From positions 870,001-902,000 of the forward strand of contig JAUIDC010000001.1 of assembly GCA_030429145.1 (NCBI GenBank): a stretch of 32,000 nucleotides of DNA, read 5' to 3'. This DNA is from Candidatus Saccharimonadota bacterium (GTDB taxonomy: Bacteria; Patescibacteriota; Gracilibacteria; Absconditabacterales; Absconditicoccaceae). The notes beneath the pieces are model-generated. The model worked only from the letters and a program-made list of their open reading frames with translations. It did no database searches and had not been told where the DNA came from. The position numbers were made by a program, and so were the translations under genes. This document shows, piece by piece, positions 25,652-27,386 of this stretch (position 1 is the first letter of the stretch; the number at the start of each line of letters is the position of its first letter).

Positions 25652-26359
25652 CTAAAAGCTAAGAAATGGAAGAAAAGATCCATCGTCGGTGATGAAGGGA
25701 TATGATAGTCCAGCTCATCAATTATACAGTTCAAGAGCTTCGGCATCAGTGACCTTTTTATTTCGCACTCATACCTCATCAATTCTACCATCGAACCATT
25801 GTGTTGATGTTTGATATTTACCAATAGTGAAATAGTTACCAGCATCTGAACTACCACCGGCTCATGAACTACTGATAGATGTGACCTCTGCACCATTAAG
25901 ATATCAACGCACAGTTGATCAATCATATGTGAGCATAATATGATACCATGTCCCTGCCGATAATGTCACAGTATAGAATGCTCTCTCACTACCTACGGTA
26001 TCTCTATTTCTCCAGAATATCAGTTTATTTGTACCGCCGGACCAGGTACTTTTGTCATAGATGATTGCAAAGAAATTATTACCTGTAGTAGTTGATAAGT
26101 GAACGACTGTTTTTCCTGATCATCCATCGCTACTATCGACATTTATCCATCATGCGATACTGACTGCACTACCTCCGTTGATACCAAGGTTGCTAGCAGT
26201 ATATATCCTATCATTCGTGCCATCAAAATCATAGCATCAATCTAGCTTTCACGATGCAGAGTATGTTGCACCATCCAGTGTGAGATTATATGTCGAAAGT
26301 TCGTCATTGACGGTATTATTAAGTTTATAATATGCGACCAAATTATCCGTCAATGCCAT
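25652..26359 (-). CDS. LamG / concanavalin-A-like lectin domain protein (235 aa), probable receptor-binding or fibre-associated
   Basis: ATG 26359 to TAG 25652-25654, 11 TGA, verified line by line. GKLDGCYDFDGTNDRIY...AVSIAGWINV...TWYHIMLTYDGSTVRGYLNGAEV...YFTIGKY...WFDGRIDEVGVRNKKVTDAEALELYN follows the LamG jelly-roll signature. Confidence 0.8.
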
Positions 26360-26360
26360 C

Positions 26361-27386
26361 TTATGCTTGAGCTTTCACTGCTAAAACGTCCCACTTCGAG
26401 TCTGTGCTGTTATACATACATCCTATATAGTGGGTTTTGCTGATCGTAGTTGCTGTCGGTAGGGTAACACCGATTACTCTATATATTGCATTCCATGAAA
26501 TTGCGCGAGACGTTCCGTCATCTTTTATTCTTATCACAAGCCTCTGTCCATTGACTGGAGATCCAGATGGAGCATTGATTGTAGTACCTTCTGCGAGTGC
26601 TGTGATCGTATAATTATTGTATGCTGAGTCTGGCGTCAATGACGATCATGTGGTGGCAGTGCTTGTGGTTGCGACTCATGCTGGTCACGTATATCCCGTA
26701 TATCCGGTATAACCCGTATTGCCTGTATATCATGTGAAACCAGTATATCCTGTCGGTCATACATCACCAGTATATCCAGTGAAACCCGTATATCCTGTAA
26801 AATTACCCGGTCCTGTATACCCAGTGAAACCCGTATACCCAGTATCACCTGTGTATCCGGTATATCATGTGAAGTTACCCGGTCCCGTGTATCCGGTATA
26901 ACCCGTCGCACCTTGATTACCTGTGTCACCAGTATACCCAGTGAAACCCGTATACCCAGTATCACCAGCACCTGCTGGTCACGTATATCCAGTATACCCT
27001 GTGTATCCTGTAAAATTACCCGGTCCTGTGTATCATGTATATCCTGTCGGTCATACATCACCAGTATATCCAGTATACCCCGTGAAGTTACCCGGTCCTG
27101 TGTATCATGTATATCCCGTGAAACCAGTATATCATGTATCTCATTGGTTTCCAGTATCACCAGTATATCCAGTATACCCTGTGTATCCTGTATATCCCGT
27201 TGATCACTGGCCACCAGTGTACCCTGTGTATCCAGTGTATCCAGTGTACCCTGTTGAACCAATAAGATCCGTCCAGTATGCCCATTTGAGAAATCAGTCA
27301 GTGTCTCTAAACACTGGGATCTTGTCGTTGCTGTTTGGCGACGCCTGTTGCGTATATTCGGCAGGGAAATTCTTGGTTTCTGTCAT
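26361..27386 (-). CDS. collagen-like (G-Y-T)n tail-fibre protein (341 aa)
   Basis: ATG 27386 to TAA 26361-26363, verified line by line. N-terminus [43 protein letters not shown], then about 60 G-X-Y triplets (mostly GYT, GFT, GDT, GPT), then the globular C-terminus of track ORF 26361..26639. 14 in-frame TGA. Confidence 0.85.
26670..27260 (-). repeat. 9-nt periodic coding repeat (GGN TAY ACN) of the fibre gene
   Basis: Visible as PVYPV... pseudo-ORFs on the plus strand in the track. Short interruptions (GPGNFT, GPAGAG). Confidence 0.85.

Follow-up and report, generated by a model that had tools for sequence, protein, structure and literature searches.

A Gly-Tyr-Thr-rich collagen-like fibre and its LamG neighbour: a candidate host-recognition cassette of a phage that reads TGA as glycine

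Prokaryotic collagens carry threonine at 31.6-48.3% of the Y positions of their G-X-Y triplets and proline at about 19-31% of the X positions, and in one of them, BclA, the stalk is glycosylated and glycosyltransferase genes lie nearby (PMC8968730). Glycosylated virions are described for mycobacteriophages (Freeman 2023, as cited in PMC11256854). The prophages of Gracilibacteria and Absconditabacteria have all been reported to be dense in TGA codons (PMC10746230). The locus described here is a pair of adjacent genes at 25652-27386 in a stretch of 32,000 nucleotides (nt) from Candidatus Saccharimonadota bacterium (contig JAUIDC010000001.1, positions 870,001 to 902,000), and this whole stretch is called the window below. 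The first gene encodes a collagen-like fibre dominated by the triplet Gly-Tyr-Thr (GYT) and the second a LamG protein. With moderate confidence, the pair is interpreted as the cassette for host recognition, situated at the end of the late operon of a temperate, podovirus-like phage that resides in a roughly 0.94-Mb bacterial genome in which TGA encodes glycine. Gene order and homology give the fibre interpretation good support, and covariation supports the LamG partnership. The cassette belongs to a large family of phage fibre cassettes that is undescribed, and it is not a new kind of system. The pair comprises:

26361..27386, minus strand: collagen-like tail-fibre gene, 341 residues, 14 in-frame TGA codons, stop TAA (code-25 open reading frame, Pfam, PHROG tail-fibre families, gene order)
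27261..27386, minus strand: N-terminal 42 residues, putative virion-attachment segment (motif D-x-IP...K...DL)
26667..27260, minus strand: collagen-like stalk, residues 43-240 (triplet parse, TGA register, Tandem Repeats Finder)
26364..26645, minus strand: C-terminal 94-residue all-beta domain, the fibre knob (AF2 model, HMMER, PHROG)
25652..26359, minus strand: LamG / ConA-like jelly-roll protein, 235 residues, 10 TGA codons read as Gly (Pfam, homologue model)
25655..25693, minus strand: C-terminal tail of the LamG protein, ITDDGSFLPFLSF, ending FLPFLSF, putative docking peptide (covariation with the knob)

When 25652-27386 is read with translation table 11, its TGA codons split the region into many short open reading frames (ORFs). 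With stops restricted to TAA and TAG, the minus strand resolves into two clean ORFs of 341 and 235 residues. Twelve of the 14 TGA codons in the fibre gene fall exactly on triplet glycines, another falls on a glycine in the N-terminal region, and the remaining one lies in the linker that follows the stalk; an earlier interpretation of this DNA, made without database searches (the sequence-only reading), had put at least 11 on triplet glycines. Because these codons sit on the collagen glycine register, TGA encodes glycine, not tryptophan, in the window, and the register is a self-contained proof of it. Independent support comes from other proteins. In the LamG protein, 6 of the 10 TGA columns are Gly in the majority of 60 aligned homologues and genuine TGG columns are Trp; in GroEL, the TGA codons fall in the conserved glycine motifs ...GPKGRN..., ENMGA and AGGG, by comparison with the E. 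coli sequence.

The LamG protein, GroEL, pyruvate kinase and a 1186-residue protein are all encoded on one 936,577-bp NCBI contig, so that the window belongs to a small genome. Their public copies (P0121, 25652-26359; P0389, 17662-19326; P0391, 3973-5397; P0392, 28313-31873) have Trp at every TGA; the public protein records of this genome are code-4 mistranslations. The same Trp-for-TGA artefact is seen in P0122 and similar relatives in the public protein collection. The TGA density of the prophage is not new in itself, because it has been reported for all prophages of those lineages (PMC10746230).

The fibre consists of its 42-residue N-terminal segment, the triplet array, a short Thr/Ser linker and a 94-residue non-repeat end. 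The collagen part proper covers residues 43-237 and comprises 56 perfect G-X-Y triplets, arranged in six runs (18, 6, 4, 9, 6 and 13), in keeping with the 'about 60' GYT-dominated triplets estimated earlier; 33 of them are GYT, 5 are GDT and 5 are GFT. The Y position is Thr in 49 of 56 triplets (88%) and never Pro, and the X position is Tyr in 33 of 56 (59%) and Pro in only 4 of 56 (7%). Four GPGNFT hexads, at residues 97, 121, 168 and 192, displace one glycine each and keep the triplet register; one further break, GA, displaces the register. The hexads are spaced by 72, 141 and 72 nt, and not by the 60-70 nt that the sequence-only reading had given. Tandem Repeats Finder reports periods of 9, 36 and 72 in the stalk DNA with matches of 62-77%, a degeneracy which indicates that the array is not a fresh, slippage-prone repeat. 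Pfam Collagen (PF01391) matches the fibre with 81.8 bits (E = 3e-23), and Laminin_G_3 (PF13385) matches the neighbouring protein with 73.3 bits (E = 3e-20) over profile positions 1-149 of 151. Both scores are above the Pfam gathering cut-offs of 27.2 and 27.6 bits, respectively, and together with the ORFs and the triplet parse they bear out the proposed 341-residue collagen-type protein with TGA-encoded glycines and LamG-fold neighbour.

The GYT/GPGNFT repeat is not unique and recurs in many proteins of metagenomic and uncultivated phages. Among the best 120 database hits, in which its prevalence was counted, 73 have at least 30% GYT triplets and 42 contain G[PA]GNFTG, and the GYT-type relatives in this set have several different N- and C-terminal domains. 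Repeat number varies widely, the aligned relatives P0002, P0010 and P0001 having 31-50 triplets compared to 56 here. The earlier statement that the stalk departs from the usual GPT/GPP chemistry holds only in part: judged by composition, the stalk is unusual in having Tyr at X and little Pro, whereas Thr at Y is the prokaryotic norm (PMC8968730) and the repeat type is widespread. In the literature searched, no paper describing a Gly-Tyr-Thr (GYTGYTG) collagen repeat was found.

The ~195-residue Gly-X-Thr stalk would presumably be a collagen-type helix of three chains, interrupted by five breaks that are short and flexible. In collagen peptides, aromatic guest residues rank among those that favour the helix least, and the abundance of Tyr at X, together with the near absence of Pro there and its complete absence from Y, would also fit another glycine-repeat fold, such as a polyglycine-II/polyproline II (PPII) bundle or a beta-solenoid. 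The Pfam Collagen score mostly reflects G-x-x periodicity. A non-collagen fold is nevertheless considered unlikely, because Gly recurs strictly at every third residue in unbroken runs of up to 18 triplets, Thr at Y is what prokaryotic collagens have, and the collagen-like fibres of phages and BclA are likewise built of an N-terminal domain, a stalk and a C-terminal knob. Moreover, the GYT relatives carry classical GPT, GPQ and GPA triplets mixed into the same arrays.

The AlphaFold (AF2) model of the C-terminal domain is a confident all-beta structure (pLDDT 90.1), and the fibre is thus predicted to end in a small 94-residue beta-sandwich knob. The knob family is large and, like the glycosyltransferase gene discussed below, was missed in the sequence-only reading. 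An exhaustive HMMER search at E <= 1e-3 found 10,603 clusters at 50% identity; the domain almost always forms the very C-terminus of the protein, and some proteins have it as a tandem. No Pfam model was found for the window domain or for 30 aligned relatives, and PF26209 (Phage_phiTE_241_C) matches none of them at E <= 1; the knob is linked to the PF26209 protein of contig L021 only weakly, by a phmmer match with E = 1.7e-7. Its C-terminus matches phrog_3030, a family of unknown function. The fold neighbours in BFVD include minor tail proteins of Mycobacterium phages Tonenili and Charlie and tail fibres of phages phiTE and Ro1. The closest neighbour in the Protein Data Bank (PDB) is the glycan-binding-like domain of the protease CpaA, followed by phage tailspike domains. 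PDB entry 6o38 was considered as a Mu fibre-chaperone complex and rejected, the literature giving it as CpaA protease with its chaperone. A sequence search of the knob and the LamG protein against PDB chains gave no significant match.

Among cultured phages the knob is found in 205 records, 201 of which are mycobacteriophage. In Tsukamurella phage TPA4 it ends Orf28, which is preceded by the minor tail genes and followed by endolysin, holin and integrase. The knob protein of Mycobacterium phage Alice, gp108, comes after a gene annotated as head decoration. At the other end of the fibre, the D-x-IP...K...DL motif is common to the window fibre, to P0002, which is encoded on L021 and is the closest relative by whole architecture, and to the fibre of contig L030. 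The segment that contains it presumably anchors the fibre at the adaptor or nozzle.

The genes surrounding the pair are as follows:

21530-31873, minus strand: in transcription order, genes for the 1186-residue, 147-residue and 60-residue products, the fibre, LamG, a hairpin, a GT2 glycosyltransferase, a holin-like protein, and 166- and 325-residue proteins
28313..31873, minus strand: 1186-residue protein, candidate internal virion / DNA-ejection protein (position after adaptor, 718-residue and 936-residue proteins)
27860..28303, minus strand: 147-residue protein upstream of the fibre (ORF; also in contig L108)
27411..27593, minus strand: 60-residue ORF between the 147-residue gene and the fibre gene (code-25 ORF list; unannotated)
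23485..23937, minus strand: holin-like membrane protein, 150 residues (phrog_6384 holin, E = 1e-7; Pfam Phage_holin_3_3 below cut-off)
20239..21288, plus strand: tyrosine integrase, convergent with the late operon (Pfam Phage_integrase, E = 3e-25; same layout in contig L109)

The map is extended by the Logan contig L108, which is 100% identical to window 27045-32000 and adds 9.9 kb. Upstream of the fibre it encodes a Phage_capsid_4 protein and an SU10-type adaptor, then proteins of 718, 936, 1186 and 147 residues. PHROG gave no informative match for the upstream structural proteins, and the 147-residue protein matches no family in Pfam or PHROG. In T7 the order is capsid, adaptor, nozzle, core/internal proteins and fibre. 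By analogy, the window fibre sits where T7 has its tail fibre, the position expected for a podovirus fibre. The attribution of the pair to a phage and to a TGA = Gly genome, made in the sequence-only reading, is upheld by the LamG glycine columns, the phage genes of the window and the extension in L108. This contig is an independent short-read assembly of the same phage (ERR3428547) and stops at window 27045, inside the collagen repeat; the repeat thus breaks short-read assembly, and such fibre genes are likely under-represented or truncated in metagenome assemblies.

A related TGA-recoded phage, the 38.9-kb contig L109, has the same map through holin, a 326-residue protein and integrase. Its fibre slot is occupied by a 626-residue protein with the same C-terminal domain (42% identity), a 149-residue partner replaces the LamG protein, and there is no GT2 gene. 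The fibre cassette is thus the exchangeable part of a map that is otherwise conserved, and the L109 fibre exemplifies how a stalk is replaced inside a single phage lineage. This 626-residue fibre (15754-17634) has two tandem knob-like domains, the second of which matches PF26209, and, in place of a collagen stalk, only vestigial G-X-Y. The 1186-residue protein has a weak tblastn match to a 'putative DNA transfer protein' and a relative, P0393, in L109. Its gene contains 41 TGA codons, and it has essentially no homologues beyond two contigs. Its C-terminus is composed of two similar segments of ~130 residues, each with YHG[GT] and ending ...FDP..I.

Collagen-like head fibres occur in other viruses, and Alice gp108, which contains a homologous domain, comes after a head-decoration gene. 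It is nonetheless very unlikely that the window fibre is a head fibre or another virion decoration. Upstream of its gene are those of an adaptor, a protein of nozzle size and large proteins of internal type, and lysis comes just after it; the TPA4 knob gene comes after minor tail genes; and the BFVD neighbours are annotated as minor tail proteins or tail fibres.

The fibre and LamG genes are joined by the sequence TAA-G-ATG. The LamG start codon is therefore 1 nt after the fibre stop, as the sequence-only reading had it, and the LamG protein would be made by coupled translation. Pfam and PHROG gave only LamG-type matches for it. The protein has 217 homologues at E <= 1e-3, most of which are single-domain proteins of 220-270 residues starting MALTDNLVAYYKL. 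They are found at 80 IMG/VR viral loci and are thus not confined to non-phage contexts. A scan of genome contigs gave distant LamG relatives only, perhaps because back-translated patterns miss TGA-encoded Gly. The pair of collagen-knob fibre and LamG protein also occurs in L023/L024. Homologue P0124 (39% identity), modelled in place of the window protein, is predicted to be a jelly roll (pLDDT 87.7) with a final ~13 residues of low confidence. Foldseek matched this model with probability 1.0 to the lectin-like N-subdomain of the Hc fragment of the clostridial neurotoxins TeNT/BoNT and to domain 4 of AbnA, a carbohydrate-binding arabinanase domain.

A gene directly downstream of a fibre gene, with coupled translation, is in the classical position of a chaperone; lambda Tfa, Mu U and T4 gp38 are fibre chaperones in that position. 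The gene upstream of LamG varies across the viral loci, and many of the LamG homologues are encoded after genes other than fibre genes or form part of longer fusion proteins. The LamG protein could therefore be a fibre assembly factor, or an independent carbohydrate-binding protein associated with the baseplate or nozzle, rather than a distal adhesin. This is considered rather unlikely, as no similarity to known chaperone families was found in Pfam, PHROG or NCBIfam and the predicted fold is a lectin-type jelly roll. Furthermore, the tail of the LamG protein is matched to the fibre terminus, which argues for a specific contact, compatible with an adhesin that is retained as well as with a chaperone that remains bound.

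This match was detected by comparing LamG proteins with their upstream neighbours. A tail of the form F-[FLM]-x-[FMLIT] ends 6 of the 8 LamG proteins whose genes lie no more than 1.5 kb downstream of a knob fibre, compared to 1 of 59 others (Fisher p = 1.9e-6), and a different tail, VKxxNGL, ends 4 of the 5 that accompany fibres ending ...F.P....ITH[VT], compared to 2 of 62 without such fibres (Fisher p = 1e-4), p-values that are indicative only, because the motifs were set after inspection of the data and the loci are phylogenetically non-independent. The two LamG proteins that have a knob fibre upstream and lack the motif end in NLLAFT and AMFAFF. Ends of the NF[FL]x[FM] kind are also seen in proteins that come after the knob elsewhere and are unrelated in sequence, namely TPA4 Orf29, Alice gp109 and the partners in L110, L111 and L112. 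Profile comparison detected no homology of the TPA4 and Alice proteins to the LamG family, and the L110-L112 partners are likewise unrelated to it. Because the LamG tail type covaries with the terminus of the upstream fibre, the pairing is not accidental, and the coupling of fibre and LamG protein proposed earlier is borne out in this respect. The pattern suggests that the aromatic LamG tail docks on the fibre knob. The knob can then be read as a socket and the tail as a plug, with binding bodies that are interchangeable. In the window phage, the disordered aromatic tail (FLPFLSF) would most likely dock on the knob and thereby place a lectin-type binding module at the tip of the fibre.

Downstream of the LamG gene the window contains:

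25582..25598, minus strand: terminator-like hairpin CCCGCActataTGCGGG followed by a T-run, just 3' of LamG (consensus scan, sequence)
25594..25615, plus strand: right copy of a 22-nt direct repeat, GCGGGTTTGTCTAGCAACAACT, between LamG and GT2 (exact match; overlaps the terminator hairpin)
7159..7180, plus strand: left copy of the same repeat, GCGGGTTTGTCTAGCAACAACT, at a junction of host-like and phage-like genes (exact match)
23855..25555, minus strand: two-domain GT2 glycosyltransferase, 566 residues, candidate fibre glycosyltransferase (Pfam, phrog_13126)

Pfam Glycos_transf_2 matches the GT2 protein with E = 1e-20 in three stretches, and PHROG assigns it to phrog_13126. Orthologues of ~580 residues, 44-52% identical over their full length, are encoded one to three genes downstream of collagen-knob fibres in L021, L110, L111 and L113, contigs of 38-58% GC with genes called under the standard code; among themselves these are up to 67% identical. 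At 5 of 5 loci whose downstream sequence is long enough, a GT2 orthologue follows the collagen fibre. Of the 80 LamG loci, 5 of the 6 that have a collagen-like gene also have glycosyltransferase genes, compared to 6 of the 74 that have none (p = 1e-4), in a comparison that included a Pfam check. Near knob proteins that have no collagen stalk (L109, TPA4 and Alice) there is no GT2-type gene. The GT2 gene thus tracks the stalk, not the knob.

Other enzymes are encoded at these loci too. Methyltransferases, an epimerase/dehydratase and extra GT2/GT9-like domains are found at the collagen-fibre loci L021 (769-3683), L113 (6052-6693), L030 (4535-6735) and L041 (1133-3118), and their annotations suggest the synthesis of a methylated or deoxy sugar. 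In the IMG/VR contigs L045 (4340-8828) and L059 (7861-9549), relatives of the GT2 gene come after LamG and are split by HNH-endonuclease ORFs.

Collagens carrying glycosylated threonine exist. Glycosylation of the stalk by GT2 is the most economical reading of the linkage, because Thr occupies 88% of the Y positions, the NFT of the breaks is sequon-like, and there are precedents in BclA, in glycosylated-Thr collagen and in mycobacteriophage virions. The two-domain enzyme would probably O-glycosylate the Thr-rich, Pro-poor stalk, and the sugars would stabilise or shield it. A more far-reaching proposal, to which we give only tentative credence, is a widespread and undescribed three-part module in which a GYT fibre glycosylated by a dedicated GT2 ends in a universal knob socket that accepts interchangeable binders with NF[FL]x[FM] plugs. 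The triple helix of such a fibre would, again tentatively, depend on O-glycosylation of the Y-position threonines and perhaps of the NFT sites too. A fibre of this kind would be the viral counterpart of BclA and of glycosylated-Thr cuticle collagen. The associations of aromatic LamG tail with knob and of GT2 with collagen fibres are the two points that sequence comparison suggests to be new.

The exact 22-mer is found in the window only at 7159 and 25594, where none is expected by chance, and it is absent from IMG/VR, JGI metagenomes, L108 and L109. The flanks of the two copies are unrelated; neither a LamG remnant nor longer homology was found around the left copy. The repeat resembles an att core, and its copies would delimit a segment of 18.4 kb that includes the integrase. 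Were the copies the att sites of an integrative element of its own (7181-25593), that element would not include the fibre-LamG pair, which would then be part of another prophage remnant or of domesticated host sequence, and GT2 would have no relation to the pair. The boundary between host-like and phage-like genes at the left copy, the unrelated flanks and the integrase within the segment are consistent with this, yet it is highly improbable. The att-core reading is at odds with the synteny of related phages: the order GT2, holin, 325-residue protein and integrase, directly after the fibre cassette, agrees with the vegetative map of L109. Four further phage contigs have a GT2 orthologue downstream of a homologous collagen fibre, and neither the fibre nor the LamG protein has a signal peptide or anchor detectable by sequence. 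The L109 synteny and the linkage of GT2 to collagen therefore indicate that GT2 and the fibre belong to one phage lineage. No tRNA gene lies within the 32-kb window, and hence none was seen there as an integration target.

Several points weigh against the interpretation of the pair as a host-recognition cassette with a glycosylated collagen stalk, in addition to the post hoc definition of the tail motifs. Tyr at X and scarce Pro disfavour collagen helices in host-guest peptide data. The 42-residue N-terminal segment is short and matches no Pfam or PHROG family and no characterised attachment domain. The order of genes in Alice, where gp108 follows a head-decoration gene, means that a tail location is not universal for knob proteins. 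The partners in L021 and L109 do not have the aromatic tail, and LamG is one of several unrelated occupants of the slot. Finally, the hairpin and the 22-nt repeat between LamG and GT2 raise the possibility that GT2 is separately expressed and acts on host polysaccharide; the gene may be a lysogenic-conversion moron, which would fit the terminator between LamG and GT2.

The rest of the window contains:

1-7000: host-type genes, comprising an exonuclease VII-like gene (by sequence), four type IV pilin paralogues, pyruvate kinase and a PINA-type ATPase
7500-21300, plus strand: replication initiator, Erf-like annealing protein, C5 methyltransferase (by sequence), GroES/GroEL and tyrosine integrase

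The four type IV pilin/pseudopilin paralogues are in tandem at 1434-3826 on the minus strand, beside the pyruvate kinase and PINA-type ATPase genes, and have a near-identical N-terminus, FTLIEMLIVIVIIGILAAALVPRL. The replication-initiator gene contains, at 7874-7965 on the plus strand, three to four copies of a 22-nt repeat, CTATCCAGAAAAA..., which encode YPEKS repeats; the CTATCCAGAAAAA repeats could be iteron-like sites. The GroES-GroEL genes (17328-19326, plus strand) are situated amid the phage-like early region, with phage genes on one side and the integrase on the other. GroEL scores 611.9 bits against an NCBIfam equivalog cut-off of 582.1, and the TGA share of its gene is low, 0.15. The genes are either a phage-borne chaperonin or a host groESL flanked by mobile DNA.

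Phages of candidate-phyla bacteria that read TGA as glycine are known from sequence only, and the cassette names likely recognition proteins. The knob, its matched tails and the linked GT2 would amount to a modular fibre design that is common among uncultivated phages. Their association would also suggest that phage collagen-like fibres are glycoproteins. If the plug-and-socket arrangement is true, exchange of partners would be a route of host-range change that works across genetic codes.

The code-25 prophages of Gracilibacteria and Absconditabacteria are likewise integrated and dense in in-frame TGA = Gly codons, but the study that describes them does not mention collagen or tail fibres (PMC10746230). 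Known collagen-like fibres of phages and prophages, such as the prophage proteins of E. coli O157 (PMC3368898) and the minor tail proteins of mycobacteriophages, have the same succession of N-terminal domain, G-X-Y stalk and non-collagen C-terminal domain. They are likewise encoded at the end of the tail module, and the Tonenili and Charlie minor tail proteins share the C-terminal fold. The window stalk is unlike theirs in being GYT-dominated, almost free of Pro, broken by conserved GPGNFT hexads and partly written with TGA. The window fibre is furthermore paired with a LamG protein and with the orthologous ~580-residue GT2.

The BclA family of the Bacillus and Clostridioides exosporium resembles the window fibre in its Gly-X-Thr repeats, nearby glycosyltransferase genes and absence of a signal peptide. 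BclA has GPT triplets and a C1q/TNF-like C-terminal domain, for which no Pfam match was found in the window fibre, whereas the latter has Tyr at X and a small, unrelated beta-sandwich knob. The BclA stalk is glycosylated (PMC8968730); that of the window fibre would be so by inference from its composition and gene neighbours.

T7 gp17 occupies the same relative position in the gene order, and both it and the window protein are presumed to be trimeric fibres with a short N-terminal attachment segment. No sequence similarity between them was detected, and gp17 is built of coiled coil and beta-structure in place of a collagen-like stalk. In the window phage, part of the binding tip probably comes from a second protein, separate from the fibre. 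In this respect the locus resembles T4 gp37 with gp38 (the S16-type adhesin) and lambda Stf with Tfa, in which a small protein encoded downstream binds the C-terminal end of the fibre and diversifies independently. The likeness lies in the modular swapping of partners between loci. The LamG jelly roll has no similarity to the gp38 and Tfa families, and its contact with the fibre is predicted to be made by a short, aromatic C-terminal tail.

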